A stretch of DNA of 64,000 nucleotides, taken from NCBI GenBank assembly GCA_021323945.1, contig JAJPKA010000017.1:31990-95989 (forward strand), read 5' to 3'. Positions 3,628-50,969 of this stretch are shown piece by piece. The DNA is from Pseudomonadota bacterium (GTDB lineage Bacteria > Desulfobacterota > Binatia > Binatales > Binataceae). Under the pieces are notes generated by a model that saw only the letters and a program-made list of their open reading frames with translations, did not search any database and had not been told where the DNA came from. How positions within the stretch are numbered: the first letter of the stretch is position 1; every line of letters begins with the position of its first letter. Position numbers and translations under genes: made by a program.

Positions 3628-4713
3628 TTGAAAGTTGGTGGCGCAGTCATTTTCCAAAACCCGTATGATCAGCTCTCTGATTACGACGTATACCGAAACG
3701 AGCTCAGGATCGGTGACCTTTACGAGCCGCTTGGCTTTGACTCGCTCTGGAGTGTCGAACATCATTTCGATGACTACACGATGTGTCCGGACGTGCTTCA
3801 GTTTTTGAGCTACTACGCTGGTCGCACGAAAAACATTCAGCTCGGTTCGATGGTGGTGGTCTTGCCATGGAACAATCCAATGCGGGTGGCGGAGCAGGTT
3901 TCAGTCGTCGATCATTACTCTAACGGCCGAGTGATACTCGGTTTGGGTCGCGGGCTCGCGCGGATCGAGTTTGAGGGTTTCGGTGTGAGTCTGTCGGAGT
4001 CGCGCGAGCGCTTTATCGAGTATGCCACGATGATTATCGAGGGGCTCGAAAGAGGATACTGCGAGTTCGATGGTAAGTACCTCAAGCAGGTCCGACGCGA
4101 TATTCGCCCCAAGCCATTCAAGTCGTTTAGGGGCCGGACATACGCAGCAGCAGTATCGCCCGAATCAGCGCGCATTATGGCGAAGCTAGGAATCGGCATC
4201 CTGCTTATTCCTCAGAAGCCGTGGGAGGCGGTGGCGCAGGAACTATCCGAGTATCGGACAATCTACAAGCAGGTAAACGGCGGGGAAGCCCTGCCAACCA
4301 TCGCGGCTGGTTGGGTTTTCTGTGACAGGAATGCCGAGAAGGCTCGCGAAATGGCGTTCAAGTACATCGGGGGCTATTGGAACAGCGCTTTGCGCCATTA
4401 TGAGATGACGAGCGAACACTTCGGCAAGGCCAAAGGCTATGAGTATTACGAGCAGATGGCCAAAAACCTCCAAGGTGCCGGCAAGGACGCTTCAGTTGAG
4501 TATTTTCTGAACTTGCAGGTCTGGGGCACGCCTGAGATGTGCTTCAACAAGATTAACGACATCCGAAAGCGGGTTAATGCAGACCATTTTACCGGCGTAT
4601 TCAGTTACGCCGGAATGCCATACGAGCAAGCTGAGGCGAGTCTCCGGCTATTTGCTCAAGAAGTAATGCCTGAACTCAAAAAGCTCAATGGGACTCAAGC
4701 CGAAGCAGCCTGA
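3628..4713 (+). CDS. LLM-class (luciferase-like) flavin-dependent oxidoreductase
   Basis: GFDSLWSVEHHF, GRVILGLGRG and an overall size of about 360 aa fit a luciferase-like monooxygenase. The start is probably TTG 3628, preceded by GAGGGGAGA. The track ORF starts at 3610. Confidence 0.8.
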   Translation: MKVGGAVIFQNPYDQLSDYDVYRNELRIGDLYEPLGFDSLWSVEHHFDDYTMCPDVLQFLSYYAGRTKNIQLGSMVVVLPWNNPMRVAEQVSVVDHYSNGRVILGLGRGLARIEFEGFGVSLSESRERFIEYATMIIEGLERGYCEFDGKYLKQVRRDIRPKPFKSFRGRTYAAAVSPESARIMAKLGIGILLIPQKPWEAVAQELSEYRTIYKQVNGGEALPTIAAGWVFCDRNAEKAREMAFKYIGGYWNSALRHYEMTSEHFGKAKGYEYYEQMAKNLQGAGKDASVEYFLNLQVWGTPEMCFNKINDIRKRVNADHFTGVFSYAGMPYEQAEASLRLFAQEVMPELKKLNGTQAEAA

Positions 4714-5794: not shown

Positions 5795-6358
5795 TCAGAG
5801 CGAGAATCCAAAACCGCCACCAACAAACCCAATGCCGGGACCAAAGCCGAAACCCACACCTGGACCAAATCCTCCACCTGGAGGTCCCCAGGGCCCAAAC
5901 GCCTGTTGGTAGCGTCGGGCCTCCAATGCCTGCCGGTCATTTTTTGCAGTCTGGTTATCCTTTTTCAGCAGCTCAAACCGATCGTACGCGGCCTGATCGC
6001 CATGAAAAAGGCAACCACAATAAGCAGGGTCCGCCAACCAATAATTCGTTACCCCATGTTGGTCGACATAATAACCTAGCTTCATTGCGGGCAGTGTTTC
6101 CAACCGACTCTTCTGCTCTGGGGTGGAAGCGGGAAGAGACTCAAAACCCGCGGTCTCGAGCATCGGCTCAATTTCTTGGGCCACCTCTTGAGGGGTCTCC
6201 GTTGGGCTGACACCTATGAGCGGATTGCTGCTAAGCGGGTTGCTGGTTGCGCAGCCTCCCAGCAGTAACATCACGATACCTGAGCAAATCGCGGCAAAGC
6301 GCCTAACCCGCGCGCTCCTGTCTGCTTCCCGGAGAGAGTCTGTCGGTCTTCGACGCAT
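5795..6358 (-). CDS. Hypothetical lipoprotein with a glycine-rich C-terminal tail
   Basis: The signal peptide ends in the lipobox LLLGGC. The C-terminus is GPWGPPGGGFGPGVGFGFGPGIGFVGGGFGFSL. I recognise no family. Confidence 0.6.
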   Translation of the reverse strand: MRRRPTDSLREADRSARVRRFAAICSGIVMLLLGGCATSNPLSSNPLIGVSPTETPQEVAQEIEPMLETAGFESLPASTPEQKSRLETLPAMKLGYYVDQHGVTNYWLADPAYCGCLFHGDQAAYDRFELLKKDNQTAKNDRQALEARRYQQAFGPWGPPGGGFGPGVGFGFGPGIGFVGGGFGFSL

Positions 6359-6519
6359 AATCTAGAACCTAGCATCTCATGCACGTGGATGGCTGAGCAA
6401 ATGCTGCTGTTCGTGACATCAGCTGGGACAGGCGGAGTTGGATGCGAGACAGTGTGCAGCTTCTTCATAAGACAAGATTGAACGTCCGGTAGGCTACAAT
6501 AACAGCCAGGCAGTGAATA

Positions 6520-7245
6520 TTAATCGGCGGTCGTGCCGCTGCAGTCGCATGGGATGTCAACCTGCCTCCGACGCAATTGACGCGCGACACAAGCGAAACC
6601 ATCGAACTCCAGCAGGGTCGGAGAGGGAAGCGGGCGTACCTTTGAAAGTATTTTGAACGCCTCAGTTGCTGCGACCATGGTGACGAAACCGCTATTGCTT
6701 TCCTCGGGAGCCGCCGACCCTAAGAGATCGACGTCGGCACAAGCGGGACAGGGCGGAAGCGCTGTCATCATCGCGATGCGCCCAGGCTGGTCGCGACGGC
6801 AGAAGAGGACTGGAATTTTCGCACGAAAGAGCCCCGGCACAAGCAGCGCGGGCTCCGGGCTCCGGCCGACTAGAACCGCCAGGTCTAAACCACTGAAGCT
6901 TTCCAAGGCGGGCTTGACGGTTGTTTCAGGGTTGAGCTGAGATGCGCCCGTGGCCAGATCGTCCAGTTTAGATTCCTCACCAGGTGGAAGCTGCAAGCGG
7001 ATTTCACCGACACCGGCGCCGACCATGTATGAGAGAACCGGCGCTACGTCAGCGGCCCTGCCAACCAGTAGAAGTCGCGATGATAGAAGGCGCTCCTGTG
7101 CAGTTCCGCCGACACCTGGGACGATAATCTGGCGTGCGTAGCGATCTATCTGTTCGTTGTTCAGGACCATCCGATTGTTGTTCAGACCGAACCTGATATC
7201 GATATGTCCCCCCGTTCCCGGCGAGGCTGAATGTTGTCCGGTCAC
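6520..7245 (-). CDS. ThiF/MoeB-family paralogue with a degenerate nucleotide-binding site (probably non-catalytic)
   Basis: It keeps the N-terminal IDRYARQI motif and two Cys pairs (CPAC, CDC). The GxGxxG loop reads VGRAADVA. The DxDxVxxSNLxRQ and DxTDN motifs are absent. It is the last gene of the sulfur-carrier operon. Confidence 0.65.
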   Translation of the reverse strand: MTGQHSASPGTGGHIDIRFGLNNNRMVLNNEQIDRYARQIIVPGVGGTAQERLLSSRLLLVGRAADVAPVLSYMVGAGVGEIRLQLPPGEESKLDDLATGASQLNPETTVKPALESFSGLDLAVLVGRSPEPALLVPGLFRAKIPVLFCRRDQPGRIAMMTALPPCPACADVDLLGSAAPEESNSGFVTMVAATEAFKILSKVRPLPSPTLLEFDGFACVARQLRRRQVDIPCDCSGTTAD

Positions 7246-7312
7246 CCCTTAATCGGGCTCGACGTTAATGCAACGCGATGGTGAGCCGGTCGCCGAGACA
7301 ACGGATCAAGGA

Positions 7313-7558
7313 TTATTCGATAATATTTTTCTCGATGGGCTCGACGGTTACCCCGATTTGTCTGAGCCACGCCAAAGCGCGTTCGATCTGCTCCTGTGTC
7401 CCTTCGAATTCGACGGCCACCAAGCCCATATCTTCGGAGACGCTTGCACCCCGGATGTTGAACATGAGGTCGAACTTTTTGACCAGCTGGTAGAGAATAG
7501 GCTCTTTAATCAGAACCTTGGGATAACTCAGGTAATAGCGCTCGCGGGTACGTTCCAT
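7313..7558 (-). CDS. Stand-alone NIL-domain protein
   Basis: MERTRERYYLSYPKVLIKEPILYQLVKKFDLMFNIRGASVSEDMGLVAVEFEGTQEQIERALAWLRQIGVTVEPI has the beta-alpha-beta NIL pattern known from the MetN C-terminus. ATG at 7558 was verified in the sequence. It overlaps the cysM-like stop (7528-7530) by 31 nt. The track ORF starts at 7612. Confidence 0.65.
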   Translation of the reverse strand: MERTRERYYLSYPKVLIKEPILYQLVKKFDLMFNIRGASVSEDMGLVAVEFEGTQEQIERALAWLRQIGVTVEPIEKNIIE

Positions 7559-8574
7559 TTGTCCATGAACCGCTGCATCCGTTCGCGGCGCCAATCTTGC
7601 CATCCGATCCATAAATTCGTCGAGAGGTACTTGTCACCGAAGTCTGGAAAAACCGTGACCACGCATCCTTCCTTCAATTTGCGCGCAAGGCTTAGCGCGG
7701 CGACCATTGCTGCGCCCGAGGATTGGCCGACCAAGAGACCTTCCACTTGGCCTAGACCGTAAACCATTTCGTAAGCGTCGTCGGTGCTGACCTGAATCTT
7801 CTCATCGATCTCATCCTCGTGATAGATCCCGGGAACGATGGAGCTGGCCATGTGCTTGAGTCCTTCCAAGCCGTGCATGGCGTCGTCGGGCTCGATTGCG
7901 ATAACCCTGATCTCGGGATTTCGCGACTTGAGATAACGACCTGTTCCCATGATGGTACCGCCAGTACCAATCGCAGCGAGGAAGTGAGTTATTCGGCCCT
8001 CGGTCTGGCGCCAAATCTCAGGGCCCGTCGATTCGAAGTGGGCCAGTGGATTGGCTTCGTTATTGTATTGATCGGGCTTGAAGTAGCGCTGCGGATCGCT
8101 GGCAACTATTTTACGCGCCAACAAAATAGCGCCATCGGAGCCTTCCATCGGATCGGAATAGATTACCTTGGCGCCGAAAGCCTGAATAATTCTTTTACGT
8201 TCGCGGCTAACGTTTGCGGGAATTACGATTTCGACCGGATAGCCAAGTACGCTCCCGATCATCGCCAACGCAATGCCGGTATTGCCGGAACTCGAGTCAA
8301 TGATGGTTTTGCCCGGTCTCAGATCACCGCGCGCCAAGGCGACTTCGATCATCTTGCGGACCGCACGATCCTTGACTGATCCTCCCGGATTAAAGCCTTC
8401 GAGCTTCGCGTACAGACGCACGCCCGGTCGGAGTAGACCGGCCGTCAAGCGCGTGATCTCCAGGAGAGGCGTATTGCCGATAAGTTCTAGCACGCTAGCG
8501 GCTCGTAAGGTGGGGACCGCCTCGCTGCTAGTTGCCGCCGGCGATCGCCGGAACGATTGAAATGTCGTCGCCAT
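7528..8574 (-). CDS. cysM: Cysteine synthase family PLP enzyme (CysM-like, candidate carrier-thiocarboxylate-dependent sulfhydrylase)
   Basis: LIGNTPLLEI, LEGFNPGGSVKDRA (PLP lysine), SSGNTGIALA and GTGGTIMGTGRYLK. It sits immediately downstream of a MoaD-like carrier, as cysO-cysM does in Mycobacterium. The start is uncertain because 8574 overlaps the carrier gene by 47 nt. Confidence 0.8.
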   Translation of the reverse strand: MATTFQSFRRSPAATSSEAVPTLRAASVLELIGNTPLLEITRLTAGLLRPGVRLYAKLEGFNPGGSVKDRAVRKMIEVALARGDLRPGKTIIDSSSGNTGIALAMIGSVLGYPVEIVIPANVSRERKRIIQAFGAKVIYSDPMEGSDGAILLARKIVASDPQRYFKPDQYNNEANPLAHFESTGPEIWRQTEGRITHFLAAIGTGGTIMGTGRYLKSRNPEIRVIAIEPDDAMHGLEGLKHMASSIVPGIYHEDEIDEKIQVSTDDAYEMVYGLGQVEGLLVGQSSGAAMVAALSLARKLKEGCVVTVFPDFGDKYLSTNLWIGWQDWRRERMQRFMDKWNVPASAIT

Positions 8575-8806
8575 CCTTCACCTTGGAGGTGAGCTGGTCG
8601 AGGAAGCGGATGTCGTCACCGTTCAAGTAGATATTAACGAACCGGCGCAACTCGCCTTTGTCGTCAAGCAGTCGTTCGCGCATTCCGGGGTGGCGGCGTT
8701 CCATATCCTCGATCACGGCCAGAATCGAGTCACCCTCAGCCGTAATTTCATCGTTGCCACCAGTGAAACGCCTAAGCGGTGTGGGAACACGAACTCTGAT
8801 TGGCAT
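8528..8806 (-). CDS. MoaD/ThiS-family sulfur carrier protein
   Basis: 92 aa with a beta-grasp pattern (VRVPTPLRRFTGG..., VNIYLNGDDI, DGDDISIVPAIAGGN). The Gly-Gly is followed by one extra residue (Asn) before the stop. I verified this by translating 8528-8560. Confidence 0.8.
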   Translation of the reverse strand: MPIRVRVPTPLRRFTGGNDEITAEGDSILAVIEDMERRHPGMRERLLDDKGELRRFVNIYLNGDDIRFLDQLTSKVKDGDDISIVPAIAGGN

Positions 8807-8829
8807 ACCTTAAACTTAACCTCCTCTGT

Positions 8830-10089
8830 CTATGCGGCACCAGCCAGCGACCTGCGGCCGTTAAGCTGCTCGAATAGGGCATCGAATTCCCTAAGCCGCG
8901 CTTCGATTACGTAGGGCTGGGTTATCGCATTACCGACCGCCTCCAGCGTCTTGTATCCATTGCCAGTTATCGATACTACCACGGTTTCGTCACCATTTAT
9001 GCGCTTCTGGGCGAGCAGTTTGATGGTGACAGCCAGGGTAGTACCTCCGGCCGGTTCAGCGAAGACCCCTTCGGTGCGTGCCAGCAATTTTATCGCTTCA
9101 ATGATCTCCGAATCCGAGGCGACCTCTCCCCATCCCCGTGATTCACGTACGGCGCGCAGCACATAGAAGCCATCGGCCGGGTTTCCGATGGCGATCGACT
9201 TGGCGATAGTGTTGGGTTTGACCGGTGTGATCAGGTCCGCGCCCTTATGCAGGGCCTGAATGACGGGTGCAGCGCCGGCGGCCTGAGCACAATGCACCCG
9301 GCACTCGCCCTCACTAATCAGCCCGACTTCCTTCAATTCACGAAAAGCCTTTGCGACTTTGGGCAGGATCGTTCCGCCCGCTGTCGGCAGTACGATATGT
9401 TGCGGTAGCCGCCAACCGAGCTGTTCCGCCACTTCGAAGCCAAAGGTCTTGGCCCCCTCCGTATAATAGGGGCGCAGGTTGATGTTGACGAACGCCCAGC
9501 CGTACTTGTCCGCAATTTCGCTGCATAGCCGGTTGACGTCATCGTAATTACCCCGGATTATAACGACCTGCGCGCCATAGATCGTCGAACCCACTATTTT
9601 GCCGGCTTCAACCCCTTCCGGCATAAAAATCACGCATTGGAGGCCGGCGCGCGCCGCATGAGCCGCCACCGCTGTGGCCAGGTTGCCAGTCGAGGCGCAC
9701 GACACGGTCTTAAAACCAAATTCGCGTGCTTTGCTGATTGCGACTGAAACGACGCGGTCTTTATAGGACAGAGTCGGATGGTTAACGGTATCATCTTTGA
9801 TGTAGAGATTTCTGATTCCAAGTTCGGCACCAAGCCGCTCGACCTTCAGAAGCGGTGTAAAGCCCGAGTTAGGCCCGATTTGGGGTGGTGCATCGACCGG
9901 CAACAATTCGAGATAGCGCCAAAGATTATGCGGCCTCTGCTCGATCGCCGCAGGAGAAACCGCCTTCCTGATGGCAGCATAGTCATAGGCCACCTCTAGT
10001 GGCCCGAAGCAAGTCTCGCAGACGTGTAACGGACTTATCGGATAATCCTGCCCGCACTCGCGGCACTTCAAACCCGTAACGTAACTCAT
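8830..10089 (-). CDS. Threonine-synthase-family PLP enzyme with an N-terminal zinc ribbon (candidate MetM-like O-phosphohomoserine sulfhydrylase)
   Basis: CRECG..x..CETC ribbon, NHPTLSYKDRV (PLP lysine), CASTGNLA and 419 aa. The family assignment is confident. The MetM-like role is inferred from context (carrier gene next door, SAM riboswitch upstream). Confidence 0.8.
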   Translation of the reverse strand: MSYVTGLKCRECGQDYPISPLHVCETCFGPLEVAYDYAAIRKAVSPAAIEQRPHNLWRYLELLPVDAPPQIGPNSGFTPLLKVERLGAELGIRNLYIKDDTVNHPTLSYKDRVVSVAISKAREFGFKTVSCASTGNLATAVAAHAARAGLQCVIFMPEGVEAGKIVGSTIYGAQVVIIRGNYDDVNRLCSEIADKYGWAFVNINLRPYYTEGAKTFGFEVAEQLGWRLPQHIVLPTAGGTILPKVAKAFRELKEVGLISEGECRVHCAQAAGAAPVIQALHKGADLITPVKPNTIAKSIAIGNPADGFYVLRAVRESRGWGEVASDSEIIEAIKLLARTEGVFAEPAGGTTLAVTIKLLAQKRINGDETVVVSITGNGYKTLEAVGNAITQPYVIEARLREFDALFEQLNGRRSLAGAA

Positions 10090-10116
10090 CGTTTGCCCAA
10101 CCTGTTTCCTCTGCGG

Positions 10117-10848
10117 CTAATCAAGCGGCGCCTTGGTCATTACCTTGTCTGCGGCACCACATCTGCATCCCGGTCGCGCGGCTATCGGTGTCAGCCTAAT
10201 GCCTCCTGTTGCGCTGGCATCATAAGTTAGCATCCTGCCGGCGAGTGCTGGCATTTTGCCCGCGAGGCAGCAGAGAGCCTCGGCCGCCTCGACTTCACCA
10301 ATCGCTCCAGCGACTGGCCCGATAATGCCGGCGTCGCGGCACGAAGCGATTTCATCGTCCTCGGGTGGTTCCTCGAAAAGGCATCGCAGGCATGCACTGT
10401 ATCCCGGCAACACCGTCATCGCTTGTCCGGTCATGCCGAGTACACCGCCATAACAGAAGGGGCGCCCCAGCGCTACGCAGATATCATTTATCAGAAACTT
10501 CGTAAGCGGATTGTCCGTCGCATCGATTGTGAAATCGTACTGGTCGATTATCGACTCTGCGTTCGTCAGGTTCAGCCCAGAATGGTAAGACTGGATTTCT
10601 ACCTGATCGCTGATCCTTCGAAGATGACGCTTGGCCGCGCTGACCTTCGGCTGCTCCAAATCGGCAACCGTGTAGAGCACCTGCCGATGAAGGTTGGAGA
10701 GTTCTATGGGGTCAGGATCGATCAGACCAAGGCGACCGACCCCGGCACGAACCGCGGCGACCGCGGCGGGCACACCAAGTCCCCCGAGTCCTACGATTAG
10801 AATGCCGGCTCGAACCTGATTAATCGGTCTCGGCACATGGGTCGTCAC
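10117..10848 (-). CDS. MoeB/ThiF-type adenylyltransferase (E1-like), with a short N-terminus lacking the RYxRQ motif and no rhodanese domain
   Basis: ILIVGLGGLGVPAA, LIDPDPIELSNLHRQ, IDATDNPLTKFLIND, and the Cys pairs CLRC and CRC. The GTG start at 10848 lies just downstream of the riboswitch terminator, so the N-terminus cannot extend further. Confidence 0.85.
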   Translation of the reverse strand: MTTHVPRPINQVRAGILIVGLGGLGVPAAVAAVRAGVGRLGLIDPDPIELSNLHRQVLYTVADLEQPKVSAAKRHLRRISDQVEIQSYHSGLNLTNAESIIDQYDFTIDATDNPLTKFLINDICVALGRPFCYGGVLGMTGQAMTVLPGYSACLRCLFEEPPEDDEIASCRDAGIIGPVAGAIGEVEAAEALCCLAGKMPALAGRMLTYDASATGGIRLTPIAARPGCRCGAADKVMTKAPLD

Positions 10849-10880
10849 TTTTTGGCTCTCATTAAAATAAAACCAAAATT

Positions 10881-10914
10881 AAAAAACCCTCGCCGTCGAT
10901 ATGGCGAGGGTTTT
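10881..10914 (-). terminator. Intrinsic terminator (expression platform of the SAM-I riboswitch)
   Basis: The minus strand reads AAAACCCUCGCC-AUAUCGAC-GGCGAGGGUUUUUU. This is a perfect 8-bp GC-rich stem, an 8-nt loop and a U6 tract. Confidence 0.8.
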
Positions 10915-10927
10915 ACGTTTACACTCG

Positions 10928-11040
10928 CCTTATCTTTCAGGGTCTCCGTAAAGGGGCCCCGCAGGAGTTAGCACCAGCACCTTGCGCAGGCCGGTTGCTG
11001 CGGCATCACCGGGCCAGTCCCTCCGCCGCTCTGGATAAGG
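10928..11040 (-). promoter_or_regulatory. SAM-I (S-box) riboswitch
   Basis: The minus strand reads CCUUAUCCAGAGCGGCGGAGGGACUGGCCCGGUGAUGCCGCAGCAACCGGCC...AAGGUGCUGGUGCUAACUCCUGCGG...CCUGAAAGAUAAGG. The conserved S-box blocks appear in canonical order and P1 closes as CCUUAUC/GAUAAGG. Confidence 0.85.
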
Positions 11041-11311
11041 TCGTAAAGTTCTGAACACTCACACTGATACAGGCCGTGCCGCGTGTCAAGCCGACCATTC
11101 GGTCAGCCTTAGGAGGCGATTCGAACTCCAATAGTGAAATGAGGTTCTTGCGAGACTGCAATTGGCTCGTCTTGAACATTCGGGCTCGAGGAACCTTCGC
11201 CAGATTTGCACTATTTGGTTGCTTGCGGTCGCTGGGGCGAGGGTGCTTTAAAGGGCTGAACACTTCGGTATTCGGGCACTGCCCGCATGACTTTGCTCGA
11301 TGGAGGGCGAA

Positions 11312-48285: not shown

Positions 48286-49782
48286 ATGCCTATGGAACTA
48301 GGAAATCTGGCGAGCCTCCAAGCCTTTTATCCCGAGTTACTGTTGACAGCAGCGACCCTGGTCATCGTACTCATCGATCTTTTGACCTCTGACAAGTCAT
48401 GGCTGGGCGAGGTAGCGCTCATCTCGACCAGCGGTGCACTGCTTTTAATTGGTGTCGGACCGCTCGATGGGGGCGCATGGCTCTTCAGGCGCATGCTGGT
48501 CTACGACTCCTTCAGCATCTTCTTCCGAGCCTTGATCGCGCTGGCAGCCCTGGTGGCGGTGTGGATGTCAATTGGTTCGCAGGAGGTGCGTCGGTGCGAG
48601 CAGGGTGAATACTATTCTATTCTTCTCGCTAGCGCCCTGGGGATGCTCCTGATGACCGAGTCGGCCAACCTCTTAATGGCGTATTTATCGCTTGAATTTG
48701 TCAGTCTAACGTCTTACGTGCTGACCGGAATACTGCGGCATAACCGCCGGTCACAGGAGGCTGCGCTCAAGTATTTGATTTACGGCGGAGTTGCTTCCGG
48801 AACGATGATCTATGGAATGAGTTGGATCTTCGGGATGGCAGGCTCGCTGGATTTCATGGCCATCAATCGCGCTTTGTTTGCGACATCGCATATACCGGTG
48901 CTGGCCGTATTTATTGCGCTGGTCCTAATCCTGAGCGGATTGGGCTACAAGGTGGCCTCTGTTCCCTTCCATATGTGGGCCCCTGACGTCTACGAAGGTG
49001 CACCTATTCCGATAACGACGTTTCTCGCGGTCGGTTCAAAAGCTGCCGGATTCGCCTTGATGACGCGTTTTTTCTATCCGGCAATTTCACATCTGGGCCC
49101 CGATGGGAACTGGCAGCCACTTAACCAAGTCGCCTGGCCACAGCTGCTGCTGGTCGTCTGCATTATAACGATGACCTTGGGCAATCTGGCTGCGTTGCAA
49201 CAGCAAAATATGAAGCGAATGCTTGCCTATTCGAGCATTGCGCAGGCTGGGTACGCGTTGATGGGGTTTGTTCTGCTTTCCAACGACGGGCTCATCGCAA
49301 TGCTAGTCTATTTGTTCGCCTACTACGTGATGGACGCCGGCGCCTTTCTCGTAGTAATGATTGTGGCTAATCTGACTGGCAGTGAAGATATCAGTGCCTA
49401 CAGAGGGCTGGCCTGGCGTCGTGGCGGTGCGCTATTGGCGATCAGCTTGACTATTTTTCTTTTGTCATTGACCGGCATACCGGCGACAATAGGGTTTATT
49501 GGCAAGTTCTACGTCTTTGCGGCGGCAATCCGTGAGCGATTTTACATTCTTGCCGTCATTGGAATACTCAATTCCGTAGTTTCCCTCTACTATTACATGC
49601 GGCCGGTTAAGGCGATGTTTTTGGAACAGCCGGTCGACTCTGTCAGTGCGGTCACAGTCGAATATTGGAACTATGGACTGATGGGGGTGCTGGCGCTGGC
49701 AACCATCTTTCTGGGATTGTATCCGCCGCCTATTATCAGTTTCGCGTCAAACTCTTTGCGTTTCTTCATCAGCTCATCCTGA
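48286..49782 (+). CDS. nuoN: Complex I subunit N
   Basis: 498 aa. YKVASVPFHMWAPDVYEGAPIPITTFLAVGSKAAGF, and MLAYSSIAQAGY. Confidence 0.95.
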   Translation: MPMELGNLASLQAFYPELLLTAATLVIVLIDLLTSDKSWLGEVALISTSGALLLIGVGPLDGGAWLFRRMLVYDSFSIFFRALIALAALVAVWMSIGSQEVRRCEQGEYYSILLASALGMLLMTESANLLMAYLSLEFVSLTSYVLTGILRHNRRSQEAALKYLIYGGVASGTMIYGMSWIFGMAGSLDFMAINRALFATSHIPVLAVFIALVLILSGLGYKVASVPFHMWAPDVYEGAPIPITTFLAVGSKAAGFALMTRFFYPAISHLGPDGNWQPLNQVAWPQLLLVVCIITMTLGNLAALQQQNMKRMLAYSSIAQAGYALMGFVLLSNDGLIAMLVYLFAYYVMDAGAFLVVMIVANLTGSEDISAYRGLAWRRGGALLAISLTIFLLSLTGIPATIGFIGKFYVFAAAIRERFYILAVIGILNSVVSLYYYMRPVKAMFLEQPVDSVSAVTVEYWNYGLMGVLALATIFLGLYPPPIISFASNSLRFFISSS

Positions 49783-49805
49783 AGGATCTTCGGGCCAAGG
49801 CGAAG

Positions 49806-50969
49806 ATGATGGAAAGGACCGGGCGCCAGCTCGAGACAAAATTGATTCACGCCGGTGAACCGTCCCCACTGATCGAAGGCGCAGTGAGCATGCCGATTTT
49901 CCAGTCGGCCACTTTCGAATACCGCGGGGAGCAGGACTATCACAGCCTTCGCTACATTCGCCTCAACAACACGCCAAACCATGATGCATTGCACCAAAAG
50001 CTCGCTGCGATCGAGAATGCCGAGGCCGCTTTGGTGACCTCGAGCGGTATGGCCGCAATTGCCACCACATTGCTAGCGCTGCTCGGAGCCGGGGATCATT
50101 TGTTGGCACAGAACTGCCTCTATGGCGGGACATACGGCTTGCTAGTAAATGACTTCCCTCTGCTCGGCATCGGGGTCGATTTCATCGACGGCAATAGACC
50201 CTCAGACTGGCAACCGAGGTTAAAGCCTCGAACGAGAGTCATCTATGTCGAAACGATCGCAAACCCGCTAATTGAAATCGCTGATCTGAAGGCGGTGGTC
50301 GAATTCGCCAAAACCCATCATCTGATTAGCGTTATCGACAACACCTTTGCGAGCCCGGTGAATTTCCGCCCGAGCGAATGGGGGTTCGACCTGTCTTTGC
50401 ATAGCTGTACCAAGTATCTTAACGGCCACTCGGACATTGTTGCGGGGGCTGTGATCGGGCGTGCTTCCCTGATCGAAAAGATTAATCGCAAGCTGGCTCA
50501 TCTGGGCGGCGCACTCGATCCACACGCCTGTTTCCTGCTGCAGCGCGGCTTGAAAACCCTCGCGGTTCGCGTGCGCCATCAAAACCAGACGGCGCTCAAG
50601 ATCGCTCGCTTTCTCGAAGCGCACCCCGCGATCGAGGCCATTAACTATCTGGGGCTCGAAAGGCACCCTAACCACGCACGCGCCCGAGAGCTCTTTGATG
50701 GCTTTGGCGGAATGCTGAGCTTCGAGCTCCGTGGGGGTGTCAAAGAGGCGGAGGAGTTTATTGCGCGCCTGTCATTACCAATTTCAGCTCCGAGCCTGGG
50801 GGGTGTCGAAAGCCTCATTACCAGGCCGGCGGCCACCTCGCACGCGGGCCTGAGCGCGGCCGAACGACTGCGCGCACGAATCGCCGACCGCCTCATTCGA
50901 CTCTCCGTCGGACTCGAATCCGCTGATGATCTCATCGAAGATCTCGACAGAGCGCTTGAGCAGGGCTGA
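49806..50969 (+). CDS. Cys/Met-metabolism PLP-dependent enzyme (cystathionine gamma-synthase/lyase or beta-lyase family)
   Basis: TKLIHAGE, SSGMAAI, DNTFASP, and HSCTKYLNGHSD (PLP lysine), SLGGVESL. ATG at 49806 lies 23 nt after the nuoN stop. The track ORF is over-extended into nuoN. Confidence 0.85.
   Translation: MMERTGRQLETKLIHAGEPSPLIEGAVSMPIFQSATFEYRGEQDYHSLRYIRLNNTPNHDALHQKLAAIENAEAALVTSSGMAAIATTLLALLGAGDHLLAQNCLYGGTYGLLVNDFPLLGIGVDFIDGNRPSDWQPRLKPRTRVIYVETIANPLIEIADLKAVVEFAKTHHLISVIDNTFASPVNFRPSEWGFDLSLHSCTKYLNGHSDIVAGAVIGRASLIEKINRKLAHLGGALDPHACFLLQRGLKTLAVRVRHQNQTALKIARFLEAHPAIEAINYLGLERHPNHARARELFDGFGGMLSFELRGGVKEAEEFIARLSLPISAPSLGGVESLITRPAATSHAGLSAAERLRARIADRLIRLSVGLESADDLIEDLDRALEQG

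Follow-up and report, generated by a model that had tools for sequence, protein, structure and literature searches.

A 64,000-nt stretch of contig JAJPKA010000017.1 (assembly GCA_021323945.1, positions 31,990 to 95,989 of the forward strand), referred to here as the window, carries on its minus strand a compact gene cluster in which an S-adenosylmethionine (SAM) riboswitch precedes six genes, two of which encode E1-like proteins. The closest homologues of the window proteins are named Candidatus Binataceae. Riboswitch and genes together span positions 6520-11041, and the genes, all co-directional, run in the order E1a, ThrC homologue, carrier, CysM-like enzyme, NIL protein and degenerate E1b. 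A preliminary description of this DNA, made from the sequence letters alone, had proposed a SAM riboswitch followed by an E1-like protein, a ThrC-family enzyme, a 92-aa carrier, a CysK/M-family enzyme, a NIL domain and a degenerate E1, and our analysis found the riboswitch and all six genes in place. In the order in which they would be transcribed, the features are:

10927..11041, minus strand: SAM-I (S-box) riboswitch aptamer (RF00162, 87.1 bits vs. a gathering score of 44.4)
10876..10914, minus strand: expression platform, an intrinsic terminator and then a ribosome-binding site (RBS), from direct reading of the sequence
10117..10848, minus strand: E1a, a MoeB/ThiF-type adenylating subunit (243 aa; ThiF Pfam domain, E = 1e-63, profile positions 21-237 only)
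8830..10089, minus strand: MetM-type ThrC homologue, a pyridoxal phosphate (PLP) enzyme (419 aa; PALP Pfam domain, E = 3e-73, and an N-terminal Cys4 zinc ribbon)
8528..8806, minus strand: CysO/MetO-type sulfur carrier of ThiS/MoaD fold (92 aa; ThiS Pfam domain; ends AIAGG-N)
7528..8574, minus strand: CysM-like beta-replacement PLP enzyme (348 aa; its first 47 nt are shared with the end of the carrier gene)
7313..7612, minus strand: stand-alone NIL domain protein (PF09383; 99 aa, or 81 aa from the gene-caller start at 7558)
6520..7245, minus strand: E1b, a degenerate E1-fold subunit (241 aa, start possibly Met26 at 7170; ThiF profile positions 1-49 only)

The riboswitch match (E = 2.7e-19) covered model positions 1-108, which is the full aptamer, and RF00162 was the sole Rfam family detected across the 64-kb window. 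A terminator hairpin with its T tract (10914..10883; ccctcgcc-atatcgac-ggcgaggg-tttttt) starts 13 nt past the aptamer and lies ahead of the RBS, which is followed by the GTG start codon of E1a. The terminator stem comprises 12 bp, seven of them G-C pairs, and this was the only strong terminator-like site on the minus strand within positions 6200-11200. Behind this leader the genes are tightly packed, with successive spacings of 27, 23, -47, -85 and 67 nt. The preliminary description had given all gaps as overlaps or as 67 nt or less, which is correct for the genes as annotated and incorrect for the last gap if E1b begins at Met26, the start used by its homologues, in which case 142 nt would separate it from the NIL gene. 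Separate internal promoters had been raised as an objection to a single operon; in a sequence scan, promoter- and terminator-like matches inside the cluster were no more frequent than in shuffled sequence.

We scanned for the E1b family in one genome per GTDB species and obtained 40 loci with a full-length E1b (numbered L011-L049 and L053), all of them in metagenome-assembled genomes of the class Binatia. The full order E1a-MetM-carrier-CysM-NIL-E1b was present in 28 of these 40 species loci, while seven were on contigs too short for the order to be judged; in three (L020, L023 and L031) E1a was followed directly by E1b and then by APS (adenosine 5'-phosphosulfate) kinase and ATP sulfurylase genes, with asd upstream, and two (L014 and L040) had no E1a upstream. 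Because the identical order recurs in 28 of 40 loci, the gene arrangement is, on comparative grounds, not a chance product, and the conservation of gene neighborhood that the preliminary description had put forward as a check was thereby upheld.

What is new in this cluster lies above all in its two E1-like proteins, which matched different parts of the same enzyme. E1a aligned with E. coli ThiF residues 29-245 and had no counterpart of ThiF residues 1-15. It consists of a ThiF domain only, with no rhodanese domain (MoeZ model NF005902, 153.6 vs. a cut-off of 647). Its ATP-site residues (G20/G22/G23/G25, D44, N52, R55, Q56, K68, D109 and D112) were invariant among 31 sequences, and it contains Cys4 zinc motifs as well as C170, which aligned with the Cys of the ThiF "NCRTAG" segment. 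The motif RYxRQ was found upstream of the E1a G-loop in none of 33 complete Binataceae open reading frames (ORFs) and in none of the six wider-Binatia loci with an identified E1a, and since the riboswitch terminator occupies the stretch ahead of the gene, the E1a ORF cannot reach further upstream.

E1b, for its part, aligned with ThiF residues 2-57, and its matches to ThiF, MoeB and Uba4 were limited to the first 57-63 residues of those proteins. Its G-loop is gone, and so is the DxD...NLxRQ...K segment, with the positions corresponding to ThiF Arg70 and to the catalytic Lys. What it retains is the N-terminal arginine-finger helix, "QI[ED]RYxRQI...GG..QERL", together with a Cys4 zinc site. Within this helix, 18 of 26 columns were at least 90% conserved, vs. 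five of 76 across residues 85-160. RYxRQ was present in E1b of 41 of 42 loci (L049 has HYSRQ), and R38, which alignment offsets identify as the counterpart of ThiF Arg11, was also at least 90% conserved. The fold of the remainder was assessed with an AlphaFold2 model (predicted local distance difference test score, pLDDT, of 86.6), for which Foldseek returned ThiF (1zud, E = 7e-11), with ThiF, MoeB and Uba4 superposing at template-modeling scores of 0.62-0.66 over the full length; among the matches to eukaryotic structures were the inactive subunits APPBP1 and SAE1. The preliminary description had called the second E1 degenerate, and the loss of its ATP site confirmed this, although the relationship between the two proteins had been missed: by alignment, E1a and E1b are complementary, each keeping what the other lost.

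This pattern has parallels among characterized E1 enzymes. ThiF Arg11 and MoeB Arg14 are arginine fingers that enter the ATP site of the neighboring subunit. In the ThiF-like heterodimer Tcd1-Tcd2 of yeast, the sole role of one subunit is to donate the finger, and in the eukaryotic SUMO and NEDD8 E1s an active adenylation subunit is paired with an inactive one to give a heterodimer. From the alignments we infer a duplication with complementary losses as the origin of E1a and E1b, and a heterodimer as their working form. We further lean, with some caution, toward the proposal that the E1 of this metabolic sulfur carrier is heteromeric, with both E1a and E1b obligatory, and that it has been retained across the whole class Binatia. 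It would constitute a bacterial two-gene form of the active/inactive adenylation-domain architecture, of which the examples to date are the eukaryotic ubiquitin-like E1s, Tcd1-Tcd2 and the single-chain BilD. The two genes were co-located in approximately 35 loci, including the three in which they are directly adjacent, and the E1b family, which comprises over 100 clusters at 50% identity, spans the class. In MetM/CysM clusters from outside Binatia, the E1 was full length.

Several points weigh against an obligate E1a-E1b pair. The arginine finger of ThiF and MoeB has been reported to be catalytically non-essential, and TcdA is without one, so E1a might be active as a homodimer, with a different function for E1b. 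E1b also diverges fast (40-57% identity, compared with 82-90% for MetM), and L014 and L040 carry E1b without a nearby E1a. These observations would suit a scheme in which E1a is an ordinary homodimeric E1 and E1b is either a pseudoenzyme with another function, such as keeping hold of the carrier, passing it to MetM and CysM or regulating these enzymes, or a decaying duplicate. E1b is unlike a decaying gene, however, because the class as a whole retains the finger helix, the Cys4 site and an E1 fold that is predicted with confidence. Moreover, the best-kept part of E1b is, in every genome, exactly the part that E1a is missing, and the adjacency of the two genes persists in L020, L023 and L031, where the other four genes are absent. 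Taking both sides into account, we consider a homodimeric E1a rather unlikely and retain the heteromeric E1 as our working model.

Weak full-length matches to E1b in Rhodobacter, Sphingorhabdus, Planctomycetota and others (L050, L054, L064, L078 and L086) were set aside, as these proteins have an intact G-loop and NLxRQ and are ordinary active E1s. When 1.84 billion representative proteins were searched with a profile, and names were then retrieved in a second search, a larger and more divergent E1b-like group did emerge, every named member of which is from Binatia. All seven contexts sampled from this group held a cluster of the same type. Four of them consisted of E1a-carrier-CysM-E1b with neither MetM nor NIL (three with a sodium/sulfate symporter and two with ATP sulfurylase), and the other three also contained MetM. 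The searchable literature yielded no account of a split sulfur-carrier E1, and the only bacterial combination of inactive and active E1 found there was the single-chain BilD of a defense system.

The second gene of the operon, the ThrC homologue, passed the NCBIfam threonine-synthase models (NF006050, 326 vs. a cut-off of 303; TIGR00260, 285 vs. 167), and every public record that names it gives the name threonine synthase. According to GapMind, MetM is frequently misannotated in this way. In Streptomyces albulus, the ThrC homologue MetM is described as using O-phosphohomoserine and thiocarboxylated MetO to form homocysteine, and a SAM riboswitch precedes metM (Hasebe, 2024, Appl Environ Microbiol 90:e01247-24, as summarized in the two papers from which we took these facts). 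For comparison we used a Nonomuraea gerenzanensis locus, recovered by tblastn of annotated records, in which a SAM riboswitch (68.7 bits) is followed by a ThrC homologue and then by a 91-aa carrier. The Nonomuraea ThrC homologue was 51% identical to the window protein (381 bits) and also has a zinc ribbon. The replicon on which it lies (L007, NZ_LT559118.1) is listed in PLSDB as a plasmid, and with 11.85 Mb and 10 annotated features it is evidently a chromosome filed as a plasmid.

A neighbor-joining tree with bootstrap placed the homologues that have an adjacent carrier in one clade (100/100), comprising the window protein, four other Binatia, an unclassified bacterium (L070), Nonomuraea and two archaea, and an adjacent carrier was present for every sampled member of this clade. 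The solved ThrCs of Aquifex and Bacillus, approximately 39-40% identical to the window protein, fell outside it, as did carrier-less paralogues from Chlorohelix, Azospirillum and Salinigranum. The latter, plasmid or chromid ThrC homologues at 36-40% identity, had been considered as examples of the same system and were rejected on finding no carrier nearby, and the zinc ribbon was rejected as a MetM marker on finding it in the carrier-less Chlorohelix homologue too. The preliminary description had suggested a phylogeny against canonical ThrC, and grouping with canonical ThrC was not seen. We therefore predict, from this clade placement, that the protein is a carrier-thiocarboxylate-dependent homocysteine synthase using O-phosphohomoserine, with the reservation, which counts against the assignment, that the Nonomuraea locus serves in it as a proxy for the S. 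albulus MetM sequence.

The name in the public records, together with the scores above the threonine-synthase cut-offs, would instead be explained if the protein were an ordinary threonine synthase that happens to lie in a cysteine (CysO/CysM) operon. This we regard as very improbable. The 100/100 clade joins the protein to carrier-linked homologues and separates it from the solved ThrCs, the name itself is the misannotation that GapMind reports to be common for MetM, and the element upstream is a SAM riboswitch rather than a threonine-related control, found only where a MetM gene occurs. The proposal in the preliminary description that the enzyme makes homocysteine rather than threonine is thus strengthened by the clade placement and by the distribution of the riboswitch, as far as sequence can go. 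No second thrC, no metX or metA, no cysE and no JAMM gene was present in the 64-kb window.

Elsewhere in the window, 39 kb from the operon and directly after the nuo (complex I) genes, we noted a PLP enzyme of the Cys/Met-metabolism family (PF01053, E = 4e-125; 49665-50969, plus strand). It scored under all NCBIfam equivalog cut-offs, the best being methionine gamma-lyase (342 vs. 550) and cystathionine gamma-synthase (328 vs. 513), and it could catalyze transsulfuration or sulfhydrylation in parallel with the operon.

The single carrier gene of the operon lies between the MetM and CysM genes, 23 nt downstream of the former. Its best solved relatives were M. tuberculosis CysO (3dwg_C, E = 1.4e-23) and an Amycolatopsis CysO-like protein (4n6e_B, E = 1e-23), and it was 44% identical to the 91-aa MetO-like protein of Nonomuraea. 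In 34 of 34 Binataceae, the carrier C-terminus was AIAGG with a single further residue that varied (R in 24 carriers, E in four, and each of Y, N, C, D, L and H in one). In the wider Binatia sampled, the carriers ended in GG, or GGG in L094. Because the Binataceae carriers end in AIAGG and an extra residue, a trimming peptidase would be needed.

The CysM-like enzyme just reached the cut-off of the cysKM model TIGR01136 (344.3 vs. 344.15) and fell just under that of the cysM model TIGR01138 (373.6 vs. 394.2). Against chains of CysK and CysM in the PDB it scored 236-203 bits, with M. tuberculosis CysM (3dki) among them. The enzyme is predicted from homology and gene context to be a cysteine synthase fed by the carrier thiocarboxylate, and the simplest reading of the single carrier gene would be that one carrier is common to MetM and CysM. 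A shared carrier is made less certain by the scores against O-acetylserine-type enzymes and against the O-phosphoserine-type M. tuberculosis CysM, which were similarly high and favored neither. Likewise, K239-H240 of the window protein aligns with R210-R211 of Salmonella CysM. With the TIGR01138 score just short of its cut-off, these findings would accommodate a carrier used by just one of the PLP enzymes, with CysM being, for example, a cysteine synthase that uses sulfide or thiosulfate, or a cystathionine beta-synthase, or with the reverse assignment. Such a division is, in our assessment, improbable, given that the carrier gene overlaps the start of CysM by 47 nt in other Binataceae as well (e.g., L004 and L006), that the minimal E1a-carrier-CysM-E1b cluster offers no other candidate user of the carrier, that the carrier is closest to CysO, and that all sampled members of the MetM clade adjoin a carrier. 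Use of the one carrier by both enzymes is the version we carry forward.

The NIL protein scored 58.3 bits against PF09383 (cut-off 24), and its nearest solved relative was the methionine-binding C2 regulatory domain of E. coli MetN (3dhx, E = 0.002). Other NIL domains have been reported to bind methionine and to regulate activity, and by analogy our guess is that the protein may be a methionine-sensing regulatory subunit. A NIL gene also adjoins an E1 in the CysM-containing clusters of L070 and L068.

The distribution of the riboswitch follows that of MetM. Every one of the 27 assessable GTDB Binataceae loci carried a SAM aptamer, placed 213-312 nt ahead of the codons for the E1a GxGGxG motif. 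The aptamer was also present in the window, in L004 (with its duplicate record L005), in L093 and in L094. No SAM aptamer was found in any of seven Binatia loci with the E1 pair and no MetM. Across these loci SAM control tracks MetM, with one observation to the contrary, as L092 has MetM and no detectable riboswitch. The L092 lineage (E1a-MetM-carrier-CysM-E1b) has a 228-nt leader (4200-4460) that matched no Rfam family, even at E <= 1, and that may therefore hold another kind of control element. The simplest history consistent with these comparisons would start from a minimal Binatia unit of E1a-carrier-CysM-E1b, to which metM and the riboswitch were added later and then NIL in Binataceae.

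A number of loci carried additional genes around the E1 pair. In L020 (7962-9408), L023 (9292-10651) and L031 (9184-10606), where E1a and E1b are directly joined, none of the four other genes (MetM, carrier, CysM and NIL) lies between them, and a SAM riboswitch is absent. The operon runs past E1b with APS kinase and ATP sulfurylase genes in L004 (9696-12400), L006 (9711-12268), L020 (9405-11925) and L023 (10791-12517), and the aspartate-semialdehyde dehydrogenase gene (asd) lies upstream. A HAD-IA phosphatase-like gene stands ahead of APS kinase in L004, L006 and L020, and a HAD gene likewise precedes APS kinase and ATP sulfurylase in L031; the window is without these genes at this site. We considered the HAD gene as a candidate ThrH-like phosphotransferase and rejected it, having found only generic HAD-IA matches, all below cut-off. 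In the window itself, a 187-aa ORF (5795-6358, minus strand) follows E1b in the same orientation after 161 nt, with a lipoprotein-like N-terminus, a Gly-Phe-rich C-terminal tail and no Pfam match on record. It may be co-transcribed with the operon, since no terminator was found between E1b and this ORF.

In the wider-Binatia loci L091 (3407-6716), L094 (8727-11928), L096 (6741-11186) and L097 (6645-11209), E1b is directly followed by a conserved gene for a protein of 406-422 aa that has a faint or weak radical-SAM match or none and that may be a further component of sulfur supply. After it come a sodium/sulfate symporter and a universal stress protein, and ATP sulfurylase in addition in L096 and L097. 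Between NIL and E1b, L017 has a 337-aa ORF (8918-9931) with no Pfam or NCBIfam match, and L025 and L041 have approximately 0.4-1.2 kb of extra sequence.

Outside Binatia, the unclassified bacterium L070 (JBDRRS010000014.1, 3623-12105) combines CysM, MetM, carrier, full-length E1 and NIL and has no riboswitch. Its locus contains a small sulfite-reductase-like gene, ThiS+CysM, TusA, a zinc-ribbon MetM, a PAS histidine kinase, a response regulator, ThiS+ThiF, NIL and a ThiI-like gene, with ThiS+CysM and ThiS+ThiF each reading as one ORF, a putative fusion. Two archaeal contigs, L065 (1086-3376) and L080 (8519-10792), from Ferroglobus sp. and an uncultured archaeon, have three consecutive genes, encoding a MetM-like protein (408-422 bits), an 88-89-aa carrier and an E1 of full length. 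On the strength of these two contigs, a MetM/MetO-type route appears to exist in Archaea.

Putting these elements together, we consider it likely that this Candidatus Binataceae operon is switched on when SAM is scarce and makes both homocysteine and cysteine by a protein-thiocarboxylate route, with E1b pairing with E1a. With SAM bound, the terminator read from the leader would form, and without SAM, transcription would read through into all six genes. The carrier would lose its single extra C-terminal residue to a peptidase, probably of JAMM/Mec type and encoded outside the operon, and E1a would then adenylate the terminal glycine. E1b would replace the usual homodimer partner and provide the finger helix in trans, as do SAE1 and APPBP1, and as Tcd1 does for Tcd2. 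Sulfide or persulfide would turn the acyl-adenylate into a thiocarboxylate; in related loci, genes for sulfate uptake and activation adjoin the E1 pair. From orthology and gene context, MetM would combine the thiocarboxylate with O-phosphohomoserine to give homocysteine, and CysM would use the same carrier with O-phosphoserine or O-acetylserine to give cysteine. NIL, in what is the weakest step of the scheme, might sense methionine and exert post-translational feedback. Against the peptidase step of this scheme, no HxH...SxxD motif was found in any window ORF of at least 80 aa, and among the 40 Binatia loci a genuine JAMM motif was found only in L029 and L039, approximately 8 kb from the cluster.

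If this scheme is correct, the label "threonine synthase" hides a methionine pathway in Binatia, an abundant uncultured soil lineage, and metabolic models built on that label would predict false gaps. The locus also points to a single protein thiocarboxylate as a possible sulfur source for both PLP enzymes, one making cysteine and the other homocysteine, and the cluster appears to have grown stepwise from a CysO/CysM core. Free NIL proteins that recur in such clusters of unrelated lineages point to an unstudied layer of methionine feedback. A heteromeric E1, if true, would be a minimal natural model for how the asymmetric core of eukaryotic E1s evolved from a MoeB/ThiF homodimer, and the E1a/E1b pair, at approximately 25 kDa each, would be a small and tractable system for studying this origin and the role of an arginine finger acting in trans.

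The preliminary description had held the full combination to be undescribed, and comparison with known systems divides this claim. The split E1 and the merged layout are new, while a SAM riboswitch/MetM/MetO core was published in 2024, a precedent that the preliminary description had itself named, and L070 has a similar combination. The core chemistry is already known, that of MetM/MetO joined to a CysO/CysM-type pair, and so is SAM-riboswitch control of metM, because the carrier-linked clade includes an actinomycete locus with the published SAM riboswitch/metM/metO layout. New are the merged architecture with one carrier, the recurrent free NIL and, above all, the complementary two-gene E1 conserved across a bacterial class.

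One of the closest known systems is MetM/MetO of S. albulus, which, in the summaries available to us, likewise has a ThrC-family enzyme beside a ThiS/MoaD-type carrier of approximately 91 aa and a SAM riboswitch upstream. Those summaries give the S. albulus E1 as MoeZ and do not name it as part of the metM/metO pair. In the Binataceae operon, by contrast, the E1 is encoded within the operon, is split in two and lacks a rhodanese domain, and CysM and NIL share the operon and apparently the carrier, with no Mec linked to it. The CysO-CysM-Mec-MoeZ pathway of M. tuberculosis has a close relative of the same carrier directly before CysM and an E1 that activates it, and the Binatia clusters of E1a-carrier-CysM-E1b without MetM are its direct counterpart, although here there is no JAMM/Mec gene in the cluster, the E1 is split and without rhodanese, and SAM-riboswitch control is present.

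For Wolinella succinogenes HcyS/HcyF/HcyD/MetY, Krishnamoorthy and Begley reportedly described in 2011 a protein thiocarboxylate that donates the sulfur of homocysteine. That carrier, too, is said to be made with a residue beyond Gly-Gly that has to be cleaved off, like the one variable residue here, but its condensing enzyme is MetY (PF01053, using O-acetylhomoserine) and its protease reportedly lies in the cluster, whereas the condensing enzyme here is a ThrC homologue and neither a MetY (PF01053) enzyme nor a JAMM protease is present inside the operon. The NIL protein shares its Pfam domain and a methionine/homocysteine context with MetN and with the NIL/ferredoxin subunit of the aspartate-semialdehyde sulfurtransferase of methanogens and Desulfovibrio, and differs from both in being free-standing, at approximately 81-99 aa, and fused to neither an ATPase nor a ferredoxin. 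Finally, SAE1-SAE2, APPBP1(NAE1)-UBA3, Tcd1-Tcd2 and BilD resemble E1a and E1b in having one full ATP site and a partner of E1 fold without it that keeps the N-terminal arginine-finger segment. By contrast, E1a and E1b are minimal (approximately 220-240 aa), with no catalytic-cysteine or ubiquitin-fold domains, and they would form, as a pair predicted from sequence and encoded by two bacterial genes, an E1 that serves a metabolic sulfur carrier rather than conjugation.

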